Source: Acidobacteriota bacterium (GTDB taxonomy: Bacteria; Acidobacteriota; Blastocatellia; RBC074). From it: 41,836 nucleotides of DNA. Under the pieces are notes generated by a model that was given only the letters and a program-made list of their open reading frames with translations, did not search any database and was not told the DNA's origin. The stretch's first letter is position 1. Every line of letters begins with the position of its first letter. Where the stretch lies: assembly GCA_041160645.1 (NCBI GenBank), contig JBEAVZ010000113.1, positions 1 to 41,836 on the forward strand, in the 5' to 3' direction. A program made the translations under genes and the position numbers. Of this stretch, positions 1,435 through 11,500 are shown piece after piece.

Positions 1435-3174
1435 TCAGTGTATCTCAGGTTCCGGTGTCGGGGCTCCGGCTTCGAGAAAGTCGAAGTCGCACCCTTCGTG
1501 CGCCTGTCGAACCCGCTCGGAGAAGATGGCCCCATAGCCACGCTGATAGTGCGGCGCCGGACGCACCCAGCGTTCACGCCGCCGGGCGAGCTCGTCGTCG
1601 CTGATTCGCAGTTCAAGCCGCCGCCCGGCGAGGTCGAGCTCGATCAGATCCCCATCTTCGACCAGCGCAAGCGGTCCACCGATGAAGCTCTCGGGTGAAA
1701 CGTGCAGGACACAGGTGCCGTACGAGGTGCCGCTCATTCGCGCATCTGAGATACGCACCAGATCACGTACCCCTTCGCGCAGCAGCTTCCGTGGAATCGG
1801 AAGCATCCCCCATTCCGGCATTCCCGGACCACCAAGGGGACCGGCATGCTTGAGGACCAGGACCGAATTGGCGTCGACAGGGAGCGAATCGTCATCGATG
1901 CGCGCCGCCATGTCATTATAATCCTGGAAGACGACCGCCCGTCCGGTGTGCTGCAACAGCCGTGGAGTCGCGGCCGTAGGCTTGATCACCGCGCCATTTG
2001 GAGCCAGATTGCCAAAGAGCACTGCGGTGCCGCCCTGCCGGGCAACCGGATTGTCGATCGTCCGGATCACCTCCGGCTTGAAGATTCGCGCCCCGGCAAT
2101 ATTCTCACCAAGACTCTTTCCATTGACCGTCAGGCAGGTCAGGTCGAGGAGATCGGTCAGCTGCGCCTGCAAGGCCCGGAGTCCACCGGCATAGTAGAAG
2201 TCCTCCATCAGAAACTCTCCGGAGGGGCGGATGTTGGCGAGCATCGGCGTCCGCTGCGATATCTCATCGAATCTCCCGAGGTTGAGCGGAATCCCGGCCC
2301 GGCCGGCCATGGCCAGGAGATGGACGATCGCGTTGGTCGATCCGCCAATCGCCATATCGACGGTGATCGCATTGTCGAAGGAGGCCACGGAGAGGAGATG
2401 GCTCGGCTTCAGATCCTCCCAGACCATCTCGACGATCCGCCGGCCACAGGCGGAGGCCATGCGTGAGTGGTTGGCATCGACGGCCGGAATCGAGGAAGCC
2501 CCGGGCAGGGTCAGTCCAAGCGTTTCGGCCATGGCCGTCATGGTCGAAGCAGTGCCCATCGTCATGCAATGGCCAGGCGAGCGGGCGATTCCATCCTCGA
2601 TCGCGTTCCAATCAGCGGTGGAGAGATTGCCGGCGCAGCGCTCCGCCCAGTACTTCCAGCCATCACTTCCACTCCCCAGCACCTGCCCCTGCCAGTTGCC
2701 GCGCAACATCGGGCCCGCCGGCAGATAGATCAGGGGCAGATCGACCGAGAAGGCGCCCATCAGGAGCCCGGGGGTCGTCTTATCGCAGCCCCCCATGAGG
2801 ACCACACCGTCGATCGGCTGGCTCCGCAGCAACTCCTCCACCTCCATGGCGAGCAGGTTGCGATAGAGGAGCGGACTCGGCTTCATAAAGATCTCGTTGA
2901 CGGGCATCGCCGGGATCTCGACTGGAAACCCACCCGCCTGGAGCACCCCGCGCTTCACCTCCTGCGCCCGGTCACGGAAATGGGTGTGGCAGATCGTCAG
3001 ATCACTCCAGGTGTTGATAATGCCGATGACCGGTTTCCCGGCATAGTCCTCGCTGCCATAGCCCATCTGCTTGAGGCGTGATCGATGCCCAAACGACCGC
3101 AGATCGTCGGGACGGAGCCACCGGGCACTCCTCAATTCATCCGCTCGCTTGCGATTTCCACCGTCTGCCATCAC
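1435..3174 (-). CDS. IlvD/Edd-family dehydratase (dihydroxy-acid or sugar-acid dehydratase)
   Basis: 579-aa ORF with the family motif MGGCDKTTPGLLMGA and C-terminal SDARMSGTSYGTCVLHVSPE. It lies immediately downstream of a GntP permease, which favours a sugar-acid (aldonate) dehydratase role. Confidence 0.85.
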   Translation of the reverse strand: MMADGGNRKRADELRSARWLRPDDLRSFGHRSRLKQMGYGSEDYAGKPVIGIINTWSDLTICHTHFRDRAQEVKRGVLQAGGFPVEIPAMPVNEIFMKPSPLLYRNLLAMEVEELLRSQPIDGVVLMGGCDKTTPGLLMGAFSVDLPLIYLPAGPMLRGNWQGQVLGSGSDGWKYWAERCAGNLSTADWNAIEDGIARSPGHCMTMGTASTMTAMAETLGLTLPGASSIPAVDANHSRMASACGRRIVEMVWEDLKPSHLLSVASFDNAITVDMAIGGSTNAIVHLLAMAGRAGIPLNLGRFDEISQRTPMLANIRPSGEFLMEDFYYAGGLRALQAQLTDLLDLTCLTVNGKSLGENIAGARIFKPEVIRTIDNPVARQGGTAVLFGNLAPNGAVIKPTAATPRLLQHTGRAVVFQDYNDMAARIDDDSLPVDANSVLVLKHAGPLGGPGMPEWGMLPIPRKLLREGVRDLVRISDARMSGTSYGTCVLHVSPESFIGGPLALVEDGDLIELDLAGRRLELRISDDELARRRERWVRPAPHYQRGYGAIFSERVRQAHEGCDFDFLEAGAPTPEPEIH

Positions 3175-3203: not shown

Positions 3204-4577
3204 TCAAATGAGGGGAAAGAGCCGGGCAAAGATCATTGTCACGATGATCCCGACCACCCCCATGATCAGCATCAACGGACTGATCGTCTTCAAACCCTCC
3301 CGCTCGGTCATCCCGCTCATGCGGGTCATGATCCAGAAGGCGCTGTCATTGAGCCAGCTGACCGGTTTTGAACCACAGCCGATCGCCATGGCCAGGTAGA
3401 CCGGGTGAAAGCCGAGAATCTCCGGGCGGGCCATCCCCGCAAAGGCGCCCGCCGTGGTGATCATGGCGACCGTGGCCGATCCTGAAGAACTGCGGATCGC
3501 CGCCGTGAGCAGAAATGCTACCGGCAGAATCGCCGCCGAGGCACGCAGCTGCTCGATCATGCCTCCGATGTGGGTCTGCTGGAGGACAGTGCCAAAAGCT
3601 CCTCCGGCGCCGGTGATGAGAATGATTCCTCCGGCTCCGACCAGCGCCTCCCTGATCCCCGCCTCAAACTCTTCACGCGCTCCCCAGCGGTAGAGGAGCC
3701 AGACCGCGAGAGCCGCGCCGATCATCAGCGCCACGTTCTTGTCTCCCAGCGCCTTCAGAAGGGGCGTCGGGTAGATGGCCGCGACCGCGATCAGCACGAC
3801 CGGGAGGATGATCGGCAGCAAGGCCAGCCACGTCCACGGCAGCTCTGATTCATCCCGCGCCATGAGATCCTCCATCCGCGCCAGCGACTCGGGGGTCTCC
3901 CGCAGGGGCAGATCCCAGCGGGCGTCGGCCCATTTCGCGAAGAGATAGCCGGCCGCCGAACAGAAGAGGCCGATCAGACATCCCATTCCAATCATCATCG
4001 CCAGTCCGATTTTGAACTCCGCGGCGACGAAGAGCGGACCTGGCGTCGGTGGAACCAGCGAATGGGTGATCGATCCACCGGCAATCAGGGCCAGAATATA
4101 CCACAGATAGTGCCGCCCGCTCCGCAACCGGACGGCCTTGATGAGCGGGATCACCAGGTAGAAGACCGTGTCGAAGAAGACTGGAATACCAAGCAGAAAC
4201 CCACTCGCGACAAAGGCCCGCGGCGCCCGCTCCTGCCCGACCAGCCGGAGGGTCGTCCGGACGATCCGGTCGGCCGCCCCACTCCGCAGCATCCCCTCGC
4301 CAATGATCGAGGCCATCGCGATCATCAGGCCAATCTGTCCGACTGTCCGCCCAAACCCCTCGGCGACCCGATCAGCAAAGAAGGCTGTCTCGAGCTGCCG
4401 GGCGGCAGCCTCACTCATTCCTCGCGCCAGTCCGTACTGATGGATCAAGTCGCCCGGCGTCAACCAGGCCACCAGTAAGGCCGCGATGATCAGCGCCAGA
4501 AACGCATGGAGCCGTAGCCCAAGAATCAGGCCGATCACGACAATCATGCCAGTCACGAGAAGGATGTATGGGTTCAT
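3204..4577 (-). CDS. GntP-family (gluconate/aldonate:H+) permease
   Basis: 457-aa polytopic membrane ORF with GntP-like N-terminus MNPYILLVTGMIVVIGLILGLRLHAFLALIIAALLVAW. It sits 30 nt upstream of the dehydratase on the same strand. Confidence 0.8.
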   Translation of the reverse strand: MNPYILLVTGMIVVIGLILGLRLHAFLALIIAALLVAWLTPGDLIHQYGLARGMSEAAARQLETAFFADRVAEGFGRTVGQIGLMIAMASIIGEGMLRSGAADRIVRTTLRLVGQERAPRAFVASGFLLGIPVFFDTVFYLVIPLIKAVRLRSGRHYLWYILALIAGGSITHSLVPPTPGPLFVAAEFKIGLAMMIGMGCLIGLFCSAAGYLFAKWADARWDLPLRETPESLARMEDLMARDESELPWTWLALLPIILPVVLIAVAAIYPTPLLKALGDKNVALMIGAALAVWLLYRWGAREEFEAGIREALVGAGGIILITGAGGAFGTVLQQTHIGGMIEQLRASAAILPVAFLLTAAIRSSSGSATVAMITTAGAFAGMARPEILGFHPVYLAMAIGCGSKPVSWLNDSAFWIMTRMSGMTEREGLKTISPLMLIMGVVGIIVTMIFARLFPLI

Positions 4578-4633
4578 GCCGCCAAGAATATGACGGTTCG
4601 AGCTCTATCGTAAAGATTTCCGGTAACTGACCC

Positions 4634-4653
4634 GAAATATAGATCCATATTTC
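4634..4653. promoter_or_regulatory. Perfect 7-6-7 palindrome GAAATAT-AGATCC-ATATTTC upstream of the GntP gene (candidate operator)
   Basis: Arms 4634-4640 and 4647-4653 are exact reverse complements. The element is AT-rich in a GC-rich genome and lies about 57-76 nt upstream of the GntP ATG (4577). Confidence 0.35.
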
Positions 4654-4815
4654 TGCCAAAGTCGGCTCTCAGGCCCGCGATGGCCGCGCCGGGAAGCCTC
4701 AACCTGGCCACCAGGGCATACAAATAGTTCCGGTCCCCGTCGCAACGTCACGACCGAAGAGAGTAATAAAGATTGTGAAGCGGATCGGCTCTGGTTGGGA
4801 AGCGAAATTGAAGGC

Positions 4816-4917
4816 AGGCAAAAAAAGAGAGGTGACCAACAAATGCTGACCACCTCAGTCACAAACTACACACACATCCCCTACACGCCCCCTCCCGGGT
4901 TTTGTTCCACGATCTTC
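4816..4917 (-). ncRNA. Copy 1 of a duplicated ~100-nt element; candidate small RNA with an intrinsic terminator on the minus strand
   Basis: About 90% identical by eye to 5195-5296. On the minus strand it ends in GGUGGUCAGCAUUUGUUGGUCACC (plus 4831-4854, a 9-bp stem including G-U pairs) followed by UCUC-U7 (plus A-run 4820-4826). Confidence 0.4.
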
Positions 4918-5194
4918 CATTTTTTATCAAATTTTCTGGTTGTTGGCCGCGAGGCTTCGCCGCGCGATCTCCGGGAGGGGCTGAACCTGTCCGGACAGCG
5001 ACAGACAACCAGTCGATCCCGAGCCCAGACCATTCAGTCGCGTCACTTTTGGCCTCCGGCTAACCGCGATAACATCGGCCCGGGCGCGAACGAACCACTT
5101 TCAGGTTGAATCTTTATTCTGGAGGGTGCAGAAATTCTGTCGGGAGAAGAAGAGGATGATGGGCAGCCGGCTGTCCGGATCAGAAGACGCAATT

Positions 5195-5296
5195 GGACAA
5201 AAAAAGAGAGGTGACCAACAAATGCTGACCACCCCAGTCACAAACTACACACACATCCCCTACACGCTCTCCCCCTGGTTTTGTTCCCTGATCTTC
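5195..5296 (-). ncRNA. Copy 2 of the duplicated ~100-nt element; candidate small RNA with an intrinsic terminator on the minus strand
   Basis: Identical hairpin at plus 5210-5233 and A7 run at 5199-5205 (U7 on the minus strand). An AT-rich tract with a TAGAAT -10-like hexamer (reverse complement of 5315-5320) lies just upstream on the minus strand. Confidence 0.4.
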
Positions 5297-5430
5297 AAAG
5301 ATTTTGAAAAAAATATTCTATTTTTTTCGTGCGGCTTCAGCTCTTTTCCATTGTATGATGATCAACCATCTCTCTGCCGGCCATACACGGCCATAAATCT
5401 CGGTCAGGCATTGGGGAAAGGCACCAGACA

Positions 5431-6885
5431 ATGGCGAAGAACAAGGTCTTGGTAGTCGATGATGAATCATCGATCCGTTACACTCTCGGCGAAGCCCTGC
5501 GCGGTTGGGGGTATGACTATGTCGAGGCGGGATCGATCAAAGAAGCGCTGGATCTGTTCGAGAATGAGCATCCCCTGGTTGTGCTGCAGGATCTCCACCT
5601 TCCTGACGGATCTGGCCTCGACGCCCTGCGTGAGTACAAGTCGCGCCATCAACAATCGGTCATTATTATGATGACCGGGAACATCCTCCTCGACGACACC
5701 ATCTCTGCCCTGCGTGGCGGCGCCTACGATTTCATCAGAAAACCGATCAATCTGCGCGAGTTGCAAGTGACGATCCGGAATGGAATCGAGGCTGGCACAC
5801 TGCGGCGTGAAGTGCGGACCCTCCGCAATGAACAGGCGCGTCAGTTTGGGTTTGACCAGATCATCGGCACTTCGCCCGCTATGCGCGAGATGATCGCCCT
5901 GGCGAAGAAGGTGGCCTCGAGTGAAGCCTCGGCGGTCCTGCTCCAGGGTGAGAGTGGCACCGGTAAGGATCTGCTGGCCAAAGCAATCCACTATGGCTCA
6001 TCGCGCGGCAACCAACCCTTCATCGCCATCAATATTGCCGCGATTCCGGGGACGCTGATCGAGAGTGAACTCTTCGGGCACGAAAAGGGCGCTTTCACTG
6101 ACGCCAAGAACCGCAAGGAGGGTCTCTTCGAGCAGGCCCAGGGCGGGACGATCTTCCTCGATGAGATTGGCGAACTCGAACTGAACCTCCAGGCCAAACT
6201 GCTCCGCGTCCTCGAAGAGGGGTCTTTTCGCCGCGTTGGCGGTTTGAAAGACCACCCGCTCGACGTGCGGGTGATAGCCGCCTCCAACCGCGACCTGAAG
6301 GGGGAGAGCGAAAGCAACCGGTTTCGGATCGACCTCTACTATCGACTCTCGGTGATCCAGATCGATCTGCCGCCCCTGCGCGAACGCGGAGATGACGTGC
6401 TCGGACTCGCCAAGCATTATATTCAGCACTTCAACCAGACGCTCCGCAAACGTATTGCGGGGCTGACGCCGCCGGTCGAGGAGATCTTCCGCCACTACCA
6501 CTGGCCGGGGAATGTCCGTGAGCTGCGAAACGTGATCGAGCGAGCGATGATTCTTGAAGATACGGACCAGATCACTCCGATCTGGCTCCCGCGCGATCTG
6601 ACCCGCGAGGATGAATGGAGCCTCCGGTCAACTCAAGCGGGCCAAGTTGGCCCGAATACTCCTCCCCCGTCCATCGTCAATCAAGCTTCGTCGCCCCATC
6701 ACAACGGTCATCAATCCCGGTCGCCATTCGTCATGCCGGAGAGCGGAATCAACCTCGAGCAGGTCGAACTCTCACTGGTTCAACAGGCCATGGAGCGCAG
6801 CGGAGGAAATCAGACCCGGGCGGCGGAACTGCTCGGAATTTCTCGGGACCAGTTGCGCTACCGCCTCAAGAAGATCGAGGCGTGA
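5431..6885 (+). CDS. Sigma-54-dependent response regulator (NtrC family: REC + AAA+ + Fis-type HTH)
   Basis: REC domain (KVLVVDDE ... [13 protein letters not shown]). Walker [22 protein letters not shown]-type loop present as EKGAFTDA. C-terminal [25 protein letters not shown]. Confidence 0.9.
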
Positions 6886-6980: not shown

Positions 6981-7928
6981 ATGAGAGAGTCGATGCGAGT
7001 TTTAATCCCTGTTGACGGTTCAGAGTCGAGTCTGTCGGTCATCGACCAGGCGGCGCTGATTCCCTGGACGAACGGAAGCCGTTTGCTGATCCTGGGCGTG
7101 GCCGAGATGCCCTCGACGCTCATGGCCGGCCCCATCCCCATGCCGGGAACCTACTATCAGGAGTGGGAGAAGGCGCTCGAAGATCAAGCTGCCAGGAATA
7201 TCGACCAGGCGCTCAAAAGATATGTCGGGGCGGGCGGCGCCGAGGAGATGGTCACAACCCTGACTATGCGCGGAAACACCAAGGAGGCGATCATCGACGA
7301 GGCGGAGAAGTTCGGAGCCGACCTGATCATGATCGGCACCCACGGCTACAATGCACTCGAGCGAATGTGGCTCGGCTCGGTCTCCCGCACTGTCGCCACG
7401 CACGCGGGGTGCTCGGTTGAGATTGTTCGTCCACGCCAGGACGCGGCCCCGGGCGGGGGGATGAAACTGCTCGTGGCGGTCGATGGATCATCTTTTGGCG
7501 AGGCAGCCGTGACCGAGGTGGCCAACCGCCCGTGGCCGGATGGAAGCGAGGTCCGGGTTATCACCGCAATCCACCTGCCCTTCGCTCCCACACCGGAGGC
7601 CTGGGTCCTGCCGGATGAGTTCTATGCCCAGGCGGAGAAGCACAGTCGCGACCAGGCTGAGGTAACGCTCCGCCGCGCCGCGCAGATAATTGAAGAGGGC
7701 AACGCGGCACGGGCCGTTCCGCTCGGTTTCAGCAGCGAGGCGATCCTTGGCCATGCGGAAGAGGTAATTCTCGCGGCCGCCAGAGAGTGGCCGGCCGATC
7801 TGATCCTGGTCGGTTCGCACGGCCACCGGGCGTGGGAGCGCTTCATGCTTGGTTCGGTGTCCCAGGCGGTCGCTTGGCACGCCCACTGCTCGGTAGAGAT
7901 CGTCCGCTCAATTCCGGGAGGCAGATAA
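6981..7928 (+). CDS. Tandem universal stress protein (two UspA domains)
   Basis: Two repeats of the Usp pattern: VLIPVDGS ... IMIGTHGYNALERMWLGSVSRTVATHAGCSVEIVR, and LLVAVDGS ... ILVGSHGHRAWERFMLGSVSQAVAWHAHCSVEIVR. ACGGAGA sits 8 nt upstream of the ATG. Confidence 0.85.
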   Translation: MRESMRVLIPVDGSESSLSVIDQAALIPWTNGSRLLILGVAEMPSTLMAGPIPMPGTYYQEWEKALEDQAARNIDQALKRYVGAGGAEEMVTTLTMRGNTKEAIIDEAEKFGADLIMIGTHGYNALERMWLGSVSRTVATHAGCSVEIVRPRQDAAPGGGMKLLVAVDGSSFGEAAVTEVANRPWPDGSEVRVITAIHLPFAPTPEAWVLPDEFYAQAEKHSRDQAEVTLRRAAQIIEEGNAARAVPLGFSSEAILGHAEEVILAAAREWPADLILVGSHGHRAWERFMLGSVSQAVAWHAHCSVEIVRSIPGGR

Positions 7929-8365
7929 TGCAGCTCGGGAAGTTGCCCTCCGCCGCGGCGATCGCCATCCTTGACGAGTCATCTCTCGGGAGACTTGGCT
8001 GCATCGCAAATGGCCGACCCTATGTTGTGCCGGTCTACTATTTTTTTGACGGGCAGGACATCTACATCCATTCGCTGCCCGGGCTGAAGATCGAAGCACT
8101 GCGGACAAACCCGGCCGCCTGTCTGCAGGTTGACCAGATCCGTGATGCTTATCATTGGCGCAGCGTCATTGTGGCGGGGGTCTATGAAGAGGTTGGGCCT
8201 GACGATCAGGAGCGCGAGAAGATTCTGGCCAGACTCTACCAGCGGCTCCCACATCTCAGCCCGGTCGAATCACGGAGCGAGTCGCGGGGTGATGAGTTGA
8301 TCGTTTTTCGCCTCAGGATTGAGGAGATAACCGGCGTGGGAGAAGAGTGGTCATGGAAAAGCTGA
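7928..8365 (+). CDS. Pyridoxamine-5'-phosphate-oxidase-family (NimA-like) flavin or deazaflavin-binding protein
   Basis: The ATG at 7928 overlaps the Usp stop (TAATG). MQLGKL ... [50 protein letters not shown] ... [13 protein letters not shown] fits the split-barrel PNPOx_2 pattern. The upstream part of the track ORF (7787-) is out-of-frame overlap with usp. Confidence 0.7.
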
Positions 8366-9939
8366 CAACCGAGGCGGAGCCTGGAACTGACCAGCAGGTC
8401 GAGAAGACGTTCAAGCTGAATGACGAATGGCTGGCCGGCATTCTCGCCTCGGCCATGGATGCGATCATCACCATCGACGAGCAGCACCGGATTGTCCTCT
8501 TCAACCAGGCGGCTGAACGGATGTTCCGGTACGAAGCGACGGCGGTTCTGGGGACGTCGCTCGACCGGTTGCTTCCGGACCGGTATCGACAGGCCCACGA
8601 AAAACATATCGACGAGTTTGGCCGCACCAAGGTCACCCAGCGACAGATGGGTCAGATCCGCCCCCTCTCCGGACTCCGGTCCAATGGGGAAGAGTTCCCG
8701 ATCGAGGCGTCGATCTCGCAGATCAAAGCTGATGGTCAGCGCCTCTTCACGGTCATCATTCGCGATATTACCGAGAAGAAGCGGCTCGAGTCGCAGTTGC
8801 TGCGGGCCCAGCGGATGGAGAGTATCGGAACCCTGGCCGGCGGCATCGCCCACGATCTGAACAATGTGCTCTCCCCGATCCTGACAGCGACGGAACTGCT
8901 GCAGATGCGCACTTCCAGCGAGAGCGACGAGGGGACCCTCCGGCTGCTGAACATCATCCAGACCAACGCCGTGCGCGGCGGGGAGATGATCCGGCAGGTT
9001 CTCTCCTTCGCCCGTGGCGTCGACGGGGACTACAGCCAGCTTCAACCGAATCATCTGATCCGAGAGATCGTCAAGATCCTGAGCGACATCTTCCCAAAGA
9101 ATATCGAGATCAGTTTCTCCATCAACGCCAACCTCTGGTACGTCTATGGCGACGCCACACAGCTTCACCAGGTGCTCATGAACCTCTGCGTCAACGCCCG
9201 TGACGCGATGCCTGATGGTGGAAAGTTGCGGATCGAGGCCGAGAATATCGAGGTTGACGAACACTATGCCCGGATGAACGTGGAGGCCAAACCCGGCCGG
9301 TACGTGCGTTTGCTGGTCCAGGATAACGGCTCCGGGATTCCGGGAGAGATTCTCGACAAGATCTTCGATCCGTTCTTTACGACCAAGAAGCCGGGTCAGG
9401 GAACCGGTCTTGGCCTTTCGACGGTGGCCGGAATCCTGCGCAGCCACGGCGGCTTCGTCAACGTCTACAGTGAGGTCGACAAGGGCACCCACTTCACCAT
9501 CTATCTCCCGGCGAGCCAGAACCAGCAGGCGGTCGCGGCGCCGGCAGCCAAGGTCGATCTGCCGACTGGTCAGGGCGAGTTGATTCTGGTCGTTGATGAC
9601 GAGCCGTCGATTCGGGAGGTGGCCCGGGAGACCCTGCTGACCTTTGGCTACCGAGTGGTCACGGCTAACGATGGGACTGATGCCCTCGCCCAGTTTGCGA
9701 CCCATCGTCACGAGATCAGACTGGTCATCACCGATATGATGATGCCATTTATGGATGGTCCGGCGACCATTCGCGCACTGCGCAAGCTCGATCCGGAGGT
9801 GCGGGTCATCGCCACCAGTGGACTCAAGGCCAATGCGCGCCACGCCGAGATCTCGCAACTTGGGGTCAACAGTTTTCTGACCAAGCCTTATACCGCTGAA
9901 ACATTGATTCGCACGATCGCGGCAGTCCTCGAATCGTGA
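8353..9939 (+). CDS. PAS-domain hybrid sensor histidine kinase with C-terminal receiver domain
   Basis: PAS region ([29 protein letters not shown]). H-box [15 protein letters not shown]-box [13 protein letters not shown]-boxes DNGSGI and GTGLGLS. REC domain ([11 protein letters not shown] ... [11 protein letters not shown]). The ATG at 8353 has GGAGAAG upstream and overlaps the preceding gene by 13 nt. Confidence 0.9.
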
Positions 9940-10022
9940 CGAGTCAGGTTGGCGATCACGGGTGAGGCTGGACCTGGTGGTTGGTGGCCAATCGCCAGGA
10001 TCGGAAGGGCCGCCAGCCGCTT

Positions 10023-10057
10023 CAGAGCCCATTCGTCCGGCAAGAGAGTGGGCTCTG
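10023..10057 (+). terminator. Hairpin (9-bp stem CAGAGCCCA/TGGGCTCTG, 17-nt loop) about 85 nt after the kinase stop; no U-tract
   Basis: Arms 10023-10031 and 10049-10057 are exact complements. No T-run follows, so a terminator function is uncertain. Confidence 0.25.
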
Positions 10058-10286
10058 ATCAAACTGGCATATCACGACCGGGGGAGTGGTGGTCAGAGGC
10101 GGGATGCCCTCCGCTGCTGGAGCGCTGACCCTGGAGGCTCGACCAGTGATCAGCGACTCCCGCAGAGAGGTTGGCTGAGGACGCAGACTTTATAAACAGG
10201 CCAAATAATCAGGCCAGATTAAATGGCCAGACAGAGTTTTCGGATAACCCTCGCAAATTGATGTTCAACTGTTGTTCAGTAATGTC

Positions 10287-10390
10287 CCTCACGAGAAGAG
10301 GAGGTCCGGGATACTTACATTCCAGCGCATCGGCCACCCCTAGCTACTCTGCACTACCATGCCCATACCCATCACTCTCTTCTCGTGAGG
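10287..10390. repeat. 14-bp perfect inverted repeat (CCTCACGAGAAGAG ... CTCTTCTCGTGAGG) enclosing 76 nt
   Basis: Arms 10287-10300 and 10377-10390 are exact reverse complements. The unit lies inside a gene-free region and has no flanking direct duplication. Confidence 0.7.
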
Positions 10391-10474
10391 CTTCTTGCCG
10401 TGGAGACTGGTCTCTGCGGCAATCACCAGCGGTGTAACAAGGTGGCCTGCCGACCTGAAAGCGGCGCGTAGCGA

Positions 10475-10510
10475 ACCTCGCGCCCGACCTCGCGCCCGAC
10501 CTTGCGTGTG
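10475..10510. repeat. 12-bp tandem repeat ACCTCGCGCCCG x3 (third unit diverged)
   Basis: acctcgcgcccg / acctcgcgcccg / accttgcgtgtg, read directly. Confidence 0.7.
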
Positions 10511-10805
10511 GTCGACCTCACGCCTGTCTCCCCTGATTGGAGACAGCCCTTGTACACCGGGATTTGTATCTTCAAAGAACTGATTCGGAAAAGAACAGCT
10601 TCGGAGACGACGTTAAGTCGGTGGAAGAAGTTCTGATCGACCCACGCCAAAGGCTCGCGAGTGTGGCTTGGGCTGGCTGAGCTATCACAAACTATTGCGC
10701 GTGGGTCAGAGTGTGCTCTTATCGCTGGCCTGGCGAGGGGAGGATGGCGGCCGCCCCTCCAGACCGTTCCTGTTTTGCTGCGCACCCGGGCTTCATTGCC
10801 GAGAG

Positions 10806-10840
10806 AGCCGGCTCGTTCAGTTCCCGGCTTTTCTGTTTTC
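10806..10840 (+). terminator. Terminator-like hairpin AGCCGG-12 nt-CCGGCT followed by TTTTCTGTTTTC (plus strand)
   Basis: 6-bp GC stem (10806-10811 with 10824-10829) plus a U-rich tail at 10830-10840. The stem is short and the loop long, so confidence is modest. Confidence 0.35.
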
Positions 10841-10880
10841 CATTACGCTCATTACGCTCATAACGCCCATTACGCATTAC
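10841..10880. repeat. 9-bp tandem repeat CATTACGCT, about 4 units
   Basis: cattacgct / cattacgct / cataacgcc / cattacgca / ttac..., read directly. It begins immediately after the terminator-like hairpin. Confidence 0.75.
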
Positions 10881-10960
10881 TGGTACCTCTTCTTTGTCGG
10901 GATTCTGGCTGCTCTGGTCTCCTCTTTTGTCGCGAGCCCGTTTTCTTATCTCCCGGCTCC

Positions 10961-11116
10961 TGACTTCCCCACTCCCGACTTCCCACTCCTGACTTCTCAC
11001 TCCCGACTTCTCACTCCTGACTTCCCACTCCCTACTGGCCACTCCTGACTTCTCACTCCCTACTTCTCACTCCCTACTGGCCACTCCCGACTTCTCACTC
11101 CCTACTGGCCGCTTCC
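10961..11116. repeat. 14-bp tandem array, 11 units (YGACTTCYCACTCC / CTACTGGCCACTCC / CTACTTCTCACTCC variants)
   Basis: Unit boundaries read directly: 10961, 10976, 10990, 11004, 11018, 11032, 11046, 11060, 11074, 11088 and 11102. The first and last units are 15 nt. The period is not a multiple of 3. The plus strand is pyrimidine-rich, and the minus strand reads GGAGUGRGAAGUCR. Confidence 0.9.
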
Positions 11117-11137
11117 GGACCGGGGCCGACCGGGGAG

Positions 11138-11171
11138 AGGCAGGCGATCCTGCCCCCAGGATCACCTGCCT
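11138..11171. other. Strong hairpin: 15-bp stem (one C-A mismatch) with CCCC loop
   Basis: AGGCAGGCGATCCTG (11138-11152), cccc, CAGGATCACCTGCCT (11157-11171). No U-tract on either strand. Confidence 0.7.
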
Positions 11172-11215
11172 TGTGGACCATCAGCGACGATCGATGACCT
11201 TTCAGTAAATACCCT

Positions 11216-11269
11216 TTGTCATCGAACCCGTCGCATTTGCTTTATAAAGACGTGAGAATTTCTCTCCAA
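11216..11269. promoter_or_regulatory. AT-rich promoter-like region around the palindrome CTTTATAAAG: minus strand TTGGAG-17 nt-TATAAA; plus strand TTGTCA-19 nt-TTTATA
   Basis: Minus strand: -35 is the reverse complement of 11264-11269, -10 is the reverse complement of 11241-11246, with an exact 17-nt spacer. Plus strand: TTGTCA at 11216-11221 and TTTATA at 11241-11246, with a long 19-nt spacer. Hexamer matching by eye only. Confidence 0.3.
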
Positions 11270-11500
11270 TTCCCTCCATTCCCAACTTTATTTTATCTCT
11301 GGAAGTTTTCTTTCGACGGCCGGTGGATCCATGATTGAATGTGGCGGGTGTGGTGAAAGACGCGGGGCGGCGAGATCCATCTTCCGCTTCGAACCCAGCT
11401 TGTGCCGCGAGATTCCACAGGCACGATGAAGCGTATCGACAATATGGCTGACGGGATGAAGGTCTTCCCGGACCTTGACGGTCCGGGGGAGGAGAAGAGA

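Follow-up and report, generated by a model that had tools for sequence, protein, structure and literature searches.

Among the small RNAs (sRNAs) that occur as sibling copies, Qrr1–5 of Vibrio have an invariant pairing region, and one of the copies adjoins, in divergent orientation, the gene luxO for an NtrC-type sigma-54 activator. NgncR_162/163 of Neisseria, PrrF1/2, OmrA/B and AbcR1/2 are encoded by adjacent, near-identical, independently terminated genes within one intergenic region. The seed R1 of GcvB is G/U-rich and single-stranded and is expected to pair with C/A-rich mRNA elements. Other sRNAs are transcribed by sigma factors of the extracytoplasmic function (ECF) type. In Escherichia coli, MicA, RybB and MicL depend on sigmaE, whose recognition sequence is GGAACTT (PMC6648896). 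In Caulobacter, promoters of sigmaT/EcfG, among them the one of the sRNA GsrN, were identified by a −35 element GGAAC combined with a −10 element CGTT (PMC5869019). Here we analyse a contig of 41,836 nt from an Acidobacteriota bacterium (JBEAVZ010000113.1; the whole stretch is called the window), which carries two near-identical repeats of 99 nt. They are best read as tandem copies of an sRNA gene family in uncultured Blastocatellia-type Acidobacteria.

That both repeats are genuine sRNA genes we consider likely from the comparative sequence evidence. The full model, in which an ECF promoter would drive a 58-nt RNA that acts by base pairing, is given a probability of roughly 0.6.

Results

Two copies of one unit upstream of a sigma-54 regulator gene

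A repeat search revealed one direct-repeat family in the window, with members at 4819–4917 and 5198–5296. Both are 99 nt long, start 379 nt apart and align without gaps at 93% identity (seven mismatches). The initial annotation had counted about ten mismatches because its coordinates overran the 3′ edge of the similarity by 3 nt; the two near-identical elements themselves are real. They lie between the gene for a GntP permease (3204–4577, minus strand) and that for a sigma-54-type response regulator (5431–6885, plus strand), in a gap that had been put at about 850 bp and measures 853 bp. With a profile of the family, nhmmer found no third copy in the window.

A terminator scan detected sites at 5235–5208 and 4856–4829, on the minus strand only, each with 12 pairs (6 G-C), a 4-nt loop and then TCTTTTTTTG. 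After the hairpin, both copies have a UCU7 tail. This confirms the minus-strand hairpin and U7 at the end of each copy, with a G·U-containing stem of 12 bp. The hairpin core GGTGACCAACAAATGCTGACCACC (24 nt) occurs exactly twice in the 41.8 kb of the window, as compared with 0.00 matches in 100 dinucleotide shuffles. Both the repeat and the terminator lie beyond chance. Since four of the stem pairs are G·U, the complete hairpin requires RNA transcribed from the minus strand (−16.1 kcal/mol, z = −3.4, versus −9.8 kcal/mol on the plus strand). As in a free-standing sRNA gene, hairpin and U-run are found on the transcribed strand in intergenic DNA, and all copies of the family are intergenic.

A fixed promoter-like architecture and an almost invariant predicted RNA

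We compared 16 distinct copies, ten of them obtained via regulator synteny in metagenome contigs and the rest by a 20-mer metagenome scan. All 16 show the same order of elements: GGAAC, exactly 16 variable nucleotides, CGT, exactly 7 nt, and then (A/U)UGUGUGUGUAGUUUGUGA... Mean pairwise identity is 1.00 for GGAAC, 0.54 for the spacer, 1.00 for CGT, 0.70 for the 7-nt stretch before the RNA (the discriminator) and 0.99 for the first 19 nt of the RNA. The spacer has 16 different sequences in 16 copies, without any insertion or deletion. These segment identities are unchanged if only the ten synteny-ascertained copies, which are independent of any DNA search pattern, are considered.

Two invariant boxes flanking a spacer that is fixed in length and free in sequence are typical of a promoter, unlike a structured or pairing RNA domain. 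GGAAC-N16-CGT has the classic −35/−10 form of promoters for ECF sigma factors and is most likely one of them. The features expected of such a promoter are all present, namely a GGAAC −35 box, a spacer of 16–17 nt with fixed length and free sequence, and a −10 box with a CGT core. By a rough estimate, a random 40-nt upstream region shows GGAAC with CGT 16–17 nt downstream about once per thousand. The initial annotation had regarded the GGA motifs of this segment as possibly protein-titrating. The GGA-rich stretch varies in every copy, never in length, and lies between the invariant GGAAC and CGT, which fits a promoter spacer plus discriminator rather than a functional RNA domain; in the distant copies L104 and L106 the GGA motifs are lost.

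The near-invariant RNA block starts with AUGUGUGUGUAGUUUGUGACUGAGG in all 16 copies, followed by the hairpin and U7. With the start taken 6–10 nt after CGT, transcripts of about 58 nt are predicted on the minus strand, from 4877 to 4820 and from 5256 to 5199. The length of about 100–120 nt and the 5′ boundary assumed originally are not borne out by the conservation pattern. The predicted RNA sequence of both window copies is AUGUGUGUGUAGUUUGUGACUG(A/G)GGUGGUCAGCAUUUGUUGGUCACCUCUCUUUUUUU, copy 2 differing from copy 1 by one base, an A-to-G change that makes an A-U stem pair G·U. In the predicted folds of the 58-nt versions, a free tail of 21 nt at the 5′ end precedes the 12-bp hairpin and U7 (z = −3.4 for copy 1 and −2.7 for copy 2), whereas 105-nt versions are no better folded than shuffles (z = +0.1 and +0.6). 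The free tail is a candidate seed and is near-invariant, with one change at alignment column 41 in L104 and one at column 60 in L106. In these models the RNA would have the structure of an Hfq-dependent base-pairing sRNA, with a 3′ hairpin, a U-tail of at least six residues and a single-stranded seed. The elements of the two copies and the neighbouring regulator gene are as follows.

4819–4917, minus strand: copy 1, whole 99-nt unit with promoter core, RNA and terminator (direct repeat, 93% identical to 5198–5296; nhmmer E = 9e-30 to the family profile)
4909–4926, minus strand: copy 1, A/T-rich tract upstream of the −35 box (TAAAAAATGGAAGATCGT), possibly UP-like (consensus AAAAtaTTtGAAGATC.T moderately conserved; lost in L108)
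4904–4908, minus strand: copy 1, predicted ECF-type −35 box GGAAC (invariant in 16/16; gttcc on the plus strand)
4888–4903, minus strand: copy 1, promoter spacer AAAACCCGGGAGGGGG, 16 nt, the G-rich/GGA region of the initial annotation (variable sequence, fixed length)
4885–4887, minus strand: copy 1, predicted ECF-type −10 core CGT within GCGTGT (invariant in 16/16; 16 nt after GGAAC and 7 nt before the RNA)
4820–4877, minus strand: copy 1, predicted sRNA of about 58 nt, 5′ end predicted within ±3 nt (near-invariant across genomes; z = −3.4)
4857–4877, minus strand: copy 1, single-stranded G/U-rich 5′ segment AUGUGUGUGUAGUUUGUGACU, candidate seed (unpaired in minimum free energy and centroid structures)
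4829–4856, minus strand: copy 1, intrinsic-terminator hairpin of 12 bp with 4 G·U pairs and an AUUU loop (terminator scan; RNAalifold pairs 62–89)
4820–4826, minus strand: copy 1, U7 tail (sequence and terminator scan)
5198–5296, minus strand: copy 2, whole 99-nt unit (direct repeat and nhmmer family profile)
5283–5287, minus strand: copy 2, predicted ECF-type −35 box GGAAC (motif and alignment)
5267–5282, minus strand: copy 2, promoter spacer AAAACCAGGGGGAGAG, 16 nt (alignment)
5264–5266, minus strand: copy 2, predicted −10 core CGT (motif and alignment)
5199–5256, minus strand: copy 2, predicted sRNA of about 58 nt (alignment; fold z = −2.7)
5208–5235, minus strand: copy 2, terminator hairpin (terminator scan), followed by U7 at 5199–5205
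5431–6885, plus strand: gene for an NtrC-type sigma-54 response regulator, first of a regulator-Usp-PNPOx-PAS hybrid kinase operon (Pfam; orthologues at 78–94% amino acid identity have sRNA copies upstream)

Two candidates for alternative features of the unit were rejected. Control by the neighbouring activator from a Qrr-like sigma-54 promoter would call for a −24/−12 site in the gap: no TGG-N9-TGC was found in 4580–5430 on either strand, and inspection of the aligned upstream regions revealed no consistent GG/GC boxes. A leaderless mini-ORF (open reading frame) AUG-UGU-GUG-UAG at the 5′ end of the RNA (4866–4877 and 5245–5256, minus strand) is probably coincidental, as L104 has UUG.

One contig end carries a variant of the unit. 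In L085 (1–107, minus strand), a GAAGATCGT box, GGAAC, a 17-nt spacer and CGT are followed by unrelated AT-rich sequence up to the end of the contig instead of the usual RNA. Possible explanations are chimerism at the end of the contig, an insertion, or use of the same promoter for a different product.

Selection on the predicted RNA

The regulator gene served as a measure of divergence. Its product shares 90–92% of residues with the window protein in L107/L084 and 83% in L106, while third codon positions are identical in only 57% and 43%, respectively. The whole 90-nt unit is identical to the window at 86/90 and 84/92 positions in L107/L084 and at 72/90 in L106; the 58-nt RNA has at most one change in L107/L084 and about four in L106. 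By comparison, the inter-copy spacer and the GntP-side spacer align between genomes no better than shuffled controls. Purifying selection is thus extreme and limited to the boxes of the predicted promoter and the 58-nt block, which excludes a neutral or recently spread repeat.

Within the pairs detected by RNAalifold (columns 62–89), only one-sided, structure-compatible changes were found. Pairing survives in the two stem changes found in L106 and copy 2, one of A-U to G·U and the other of U·G to U-A.

Distribution of the family

The scan of metagenomes with a 20-mer from the repeat gave 14 loci: six obvious chance matches, three representing the window's own locus, and five new copies. The latter (L092, L097, L099, L101 and L102) have unrelated flanks, which encode an M28 peptidase, a Fic protein, a zinc alcohol dehydrogenase, OmpR-type/PD40 proteins and an SdrD-like protein. 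The family is thus found at at least six unrelated intergenic loci. The GC content of L099 and L101 agrees with that of the window, and their tetranucleotide composition correlates with it at r = 0.97, a value equal to that between the window's own halves. Because of this equal composition, there are probably at least four copies in one genome.

Copies also precede orthologues of the regulator gene with 94% (L083), 89% (L084 and L107, two copies each), 80% (L104 and L106) and 78% (L108) amino acid identity. At 73–77% identity (L086–L089) no copy was found in the upstream spacer; in these lineages the family may be absent or sited elsewhere in the genome. A scan of GTDB genomes with the regulator protein gave only paralogues of at most 49% identity, none with the element. 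The closest homologues of the regulator carry the source names Acidobacteriota, Blastocatellia/Blastocatellales and Chloracidobacterium. The regulator-Usp-PNPOx-PAS hybrid kinase operon is conserved, whereas the gene on the opposite side varies (GntP, fucosidase, fatty-acid desaturase, cytochrome c peroxidase and others). The tie between the sRNA locus and the sigma-54 regulator is one of synteny only.

Several regulator-bearing contigs from public short-read assemblies (L001, L002, L083, L084, L104, L105 and L108) stop inside the invariant 58-nt core, at about window position 5238. This fits assembly breaks at a multi-copy identical sequence. In addition, two assemblies of one regulator allele (P0005) have GntP-regulator spacers of 1088 and 779 bp. 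The difference of 309 bp, which goes along with one extra called ORF of 38 amino acids, suggests tandem copy-number variation with two versus three sRNA genes.

Proposed mechanism and target search

Transcription, the exact 5′ end, ECF dependence, base pairing, targets and a link to the sigma-54 regulator are what we infer from sequence. In the proposed mechanism, a stress signal would release an ECF sigma factor, which would transcribe all copies at once. Through their identical G/U-rich 5′ seeds, the RNAs would base-pair to C/A-rich segments in target mRNAs, mostly close to the ribosome-binding site. Hairpin and U-tail would provide termination, stability and possibly chaperone binding, while several identical copies would supply dosage, as in other sibling sRNA families.

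A number of results weigh against this model. First, the predicted 5′ end and ECF dependence rest on the motif, and the moderately conserved A/T-rich GAAGAT box upstream could be the −10 element of a longer RNA instead. Second, the covariance analysis that had been suggested revealed stem changes that preserve pairing and 0 compensatory pairs, and thus no proof of structure. Covariation cannot be used here because the RNA barely varies. Third, no gene for an ECF sigma or anti-sigma factor was found in the window or near any copy among the fetched loci, and about 150 kb of related DNA contained no other convincing GGAAC-N16-CGT promoter before a gene, counts being at chance level. Fourth, exact seed complements of at least 9 nt numbered seven in 115 kb of family-bearing DNA, compared with about 16 expected. 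When a 25-nt seed was scored against the 30 translation-initiation regions of the window, the best value was −19.0 kcal/mol, and 93% of shuffled seeds were equal or better. Scoring of long duplexes was uninformative, the G-rich query performing worse than shuffles. The negatives for targets, ECF sigma genes and promoter sites are weak, as the DNA covered amounts to about 115–150 kb, short of a complete genome.

The window's only perfect seed complement of at least 10 nt is TCACAAACTA at 10685–10694 (plus strand), in the long non-coding spacer between the kinase and ATPase genes; roughly two such complements are expected in the window by chance. With the spacing relaxed, GGAAC-N15-17-CGT has two sites in the corresponding kinase-ATPase spacer of L085 and L104, which are not conserved in the window.

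It is also conceivable, if quite doubtful, that the near-invariant 58-nt RNA is a dedicated part of the module formed by NtrC-type regulator, Usp, PNPOx protein and hybrid kinase, either as an ECF-driven RNA that a protein reads as a whole or as one feeding back on the sigma-54 two-component system. This idea arises because all 58 nt, including loop and G·U pairs, are almost invariant despite saturated synonymous sites, and because one copy keeps its operon neighbour. If true, an ECF pathway would be wired to a sigma-54 pathway in Acidobacteria.

Alternative explanations

The first alternative, possible though unlikely, is a longer sRNA of about 90–100 nt. It would start from a sigma-70-like promoter farther upstream (the GAAGAT box or TAGAAT) and would contain GGAACAA and the GGA stretch as a CsrA-like or second pairing domain. 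It would explain why the similarity of the repeats begins at GAAGATC and why the consensus upstream of GGAAC is moderately conserved. RNAalifold is able to pair ACAA with UUGU, and GUAGGGGAUGU resembles the GGAUGU core of CsrA sites. It does not account for a G-rich stretch that differs in each copy at constant length, nor for folds of the 105-nt versions that are no better than shuffles, unlike those of the 58-nt version. Moreover, the GAAGAT box is missing in L108, L097, L102 and L106, whereas GGAAC-N16-CGT is always present. L108 is informative because the lost GAAGAT could have been the sigma-70-like −10 element of the longer RNA: this copy has lost the box and also the AA following GGAAC, and keeps GGAAC-N16-CGT and the RNA. 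A promoter scan of 4500–5500 found no sigma-70 consensus promoter. The TAGAAT pointed out in the initial annotation is present at 5320–5315 (minus strand), but it is specific to copy 2 and its near-identical relatives; the other copies have no such box there, so that a promoter role is not supported. A longer sigma-70-driven RNA thus fits the conservation pattern worse than the ECF model.

An RNA of the CsrB or RsmY/Z type that titrates CsrA/RsmA is not supported: the GGA motifs belong to the spacer and discriminator, which vary, and are not displayed by any conserved hairpin, and the predicted 58-nt RNA is without GGA.

Alternatively, the ECF-driven 58-nt RNA might act without base pairing. 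A protein or complex would then recognise it as a whole, together with the hairpin, and its role would be one of sequestration, structure or signalling. Plain terminators usually drift via compensatory changes, and the invariance seen here includes the hairpin loop and wobble pairs, beyond the single-stranded seed; the missing target enrichment points in the same direction. We nevertheless regard this as improbable, since a free 5′ tail with terminator and U-tail is the architecture of minimal base-pairing sRNAs, L106 tolerates stem changes, and a target search restricted to about 115 kb gives a weak negative.

We think it still less probable that the unit is a non-autonomous repeat resembling a miniature inverted-repeat transposable element (MITE) or a repetitive extragenic palindrome (REP), or a portable terminator cassette, with no trans-acting function. 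The spread over at least six loci with varied orientation to the neighbours, the repeated breaks of short-read contigs inside the element, and its position downstream of a same-strand ORF in L099 and L102 would agree with this. Contrary to expectation for such an element, inspection of the unit ends revealed no terminal inverted repeats or target-site duplications, conservation is limited to the RNA while the flanks are randomised, and plasmid, phage and viral-contig collections contained no match. Copy 2 has no upstream same-strand gene to terminate, and the regulator-linked locus is kept in lineages with saturated synonymous divergence. The initial annotation had proposed a search for further copies in random orientation as a sign of a REP/MITE-like repeat. 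Many copies in varied orientation were indeed found, which agrees with that sign in the letter but not in substance, as the copies are complete promoter-RNA-terminator units, one locus is syntenic, and the RNA is constrained far above its flanks.

A cis-acting leader was rejected after inspection of the gene layouts, as the genes that follow the unit are unrelated between loci and share its strand in no more than about half of them. Finally, a small plus-strand protein (MLTT[S/P]VTNYTHIPYT...), which might be a type I toxin and have its antitoxin in the minus-strand RNA, is hardly credible: a Shine–Dalgarno-like GAGAGG does lie 10 nt before the ATG, and gene callers have annotated ORFs of 37–38 amino acids here in related assemblies, but the ORF, whose ATG lies in the loop of the hairpin, has between 13 and 97 amino acids depending on the copy, with unrelated C-terminal parts, stops after residue 13 in L099 and L106 and after residue 18 in L096 (a one-base variant of copy 2), and is conserved only in its first 13 or so codons, which coincide with the invariant RNA. 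The plus-strand ATG ORF thus exists, yet its length and tail are not conserved, in agreement with the initial view of an RNA rather than a peptide element.

Taken together, the comparative evidence bears out paralogous, free-standing minus-strand sRNA genes that are neither peptide gene nor junk repeat. The sibling-sRNA reading of the initial annotation was right in kind, and wrong in length, promoter and the idea of titration by GGA motifs.

Other features of the window

Between copy 2 and the regulator gene, at 5328–5362 (plus strand), a block TCGTGCGGC..CTCTTTTCCATTGTATGATGA is conserved in six genomes. Within it, TTCCATTGTATGAT is invariant, while the surroundings are unalignable. It is probably the promoter/operator of the regulator-Usp-PNPOx-kinase operon, with TATGAT as a possible −10 element. 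Farther downstream in the operon, TGGCACGCCCACTGC at 7875–7889 (plus strand) is a good match to the sigma-54 −24/−12 consensus. Since this site lies at the 3′ terminus of the Usp gene, shortly before the PNPOx-like gene (7928–8365), the neighbouring sigma-54 activator might act on it.

With 1.46 kb, the spacer that separates the hybrid kinase gene from a gene for a P-type cation ATPase (9940–11401) is of unusual length, and it seems to be non-coding. Arrays of 14-nt (about 10.6 copies, 10957–11106), 9-nt (10841–10875) and 12-nt repeats (10475–10506) are found in it. This gap is also long in L085 and L104 (1–1.1 kb), and the ATPase may have its leader or a regulatory RNA here. At 10568–10578 the spacer shares 11 nt (ATCTTCAAAGA) with the A/T-rich box that precedes copy 2, followed on the minus strand by a strong hairpin, CTGTCTCC...GGAGACAG, at about 10525–10547.

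Two calls in the window are doubtful. ARAGORN calls a 98-nt tRNA-Val at 1538–1635 (plus strand), inside an opposite-strand ORF for an IlvD/Edd dehydratase and without Rfam support; it is probably a false positive. An ORF of 608 codons at 8236–10062 (minus strand) has no Pfam match and is antisense to the PAS hybrid histidine kinase gene (8347–9939, plus strand). It is almost certainly spurious.

Discussion

Acidobacteria are among the most abundant phyla of soil and freshwater. A full-text literature search found no characterised regulatory sRNA in this phylum. If confirmed, the family would be a first concrete handle on post-transcriptional control in Acidobacteria, and it would extend the use of sRNAs as the repressing arm of ECF sigma factors beyond Proteobacteria. 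It offers a very short, sharply bounded RNA, a predicted class of promoter that directs attention to an ECF stress pathway, and identical copies that suggest dosage control. For annotation, the identical 58-nt core fragments short-read assemblies, and the opposite-strand ORFs of 13–97 amino acids are spurious and should not be called.

The family is of a well-known kind, that of alternative-sigma-driven, terminator-ended, trans-acting sRNAs with sibling copies, and was not found in Rfam. What sets it apart is the phylum, the very small size, the near-absolute conservation and the cleanly readable ECF-type promoter. When the whole window was searched with Rfam 15 at gathering thresholds, only a tRNA passed, and a permissive scan of 4580–5440 gave only chance-level matches, none better than E = 0.2 or 19 bits. 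The best near-match, RF04177 (the Bacteroides sRNA BTnc201), has in common a G/U-rich stretch followed by a terminator. With 19 bits compared with a gathering score of 105, and E = 1.4, this likeness is compositional only.

The sigmaE-dependent sRNAs RybB, MicA and MicL of Enterobacteria are similar to the RNAs predicted here in being short RNAs with an ECF promoter that has a GGAAC-type −35 element (PMC6648896). They likewise have a single-stranded 5′ seed followed by an intrinsic terminator, and the role proposed for the family, that of the repressing arm of a stress sigma regulon, corresponds to theirs. They differ in showing no sequence similarity to the family described here and in belonging to a different phylum, and the −10 element is CGT here rather than GTC or TCAAA. 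A further difference from RybB, MicA and MicL is that the present family has several copies with identical RNAs. Among published promoters, the GGAAC...CGTT of GsrN, a stress-response sRNA under sigmaT/EcfG control in Caulobacter, comes closest to GGAAC-N16-CGT(G/T)T (PMC5869019). GsrN is a single-copy, longer and processed RNA with a C-rich loop and has no homology to this family.

The arrangement next to an NtrC-type regulator gene recalls Qrr1–5. The Qrr promoters are of the sigma-54 type, whereas no TGG-N9-TGC is found in 4580–5430 and the conserved boxes are ECF-like. NgncR_162/163, PrrF1/2, OmrA/B and AbcR1/2 differ in sequence and in their regulators, and the family in Acidobacteria has further copies at distant loci. 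GcvB, with which the G/U-rich candidate seed invites comparison, is about 200 nt long, sigma-70/GcvA-dependent and single-copy, and shows no homology.

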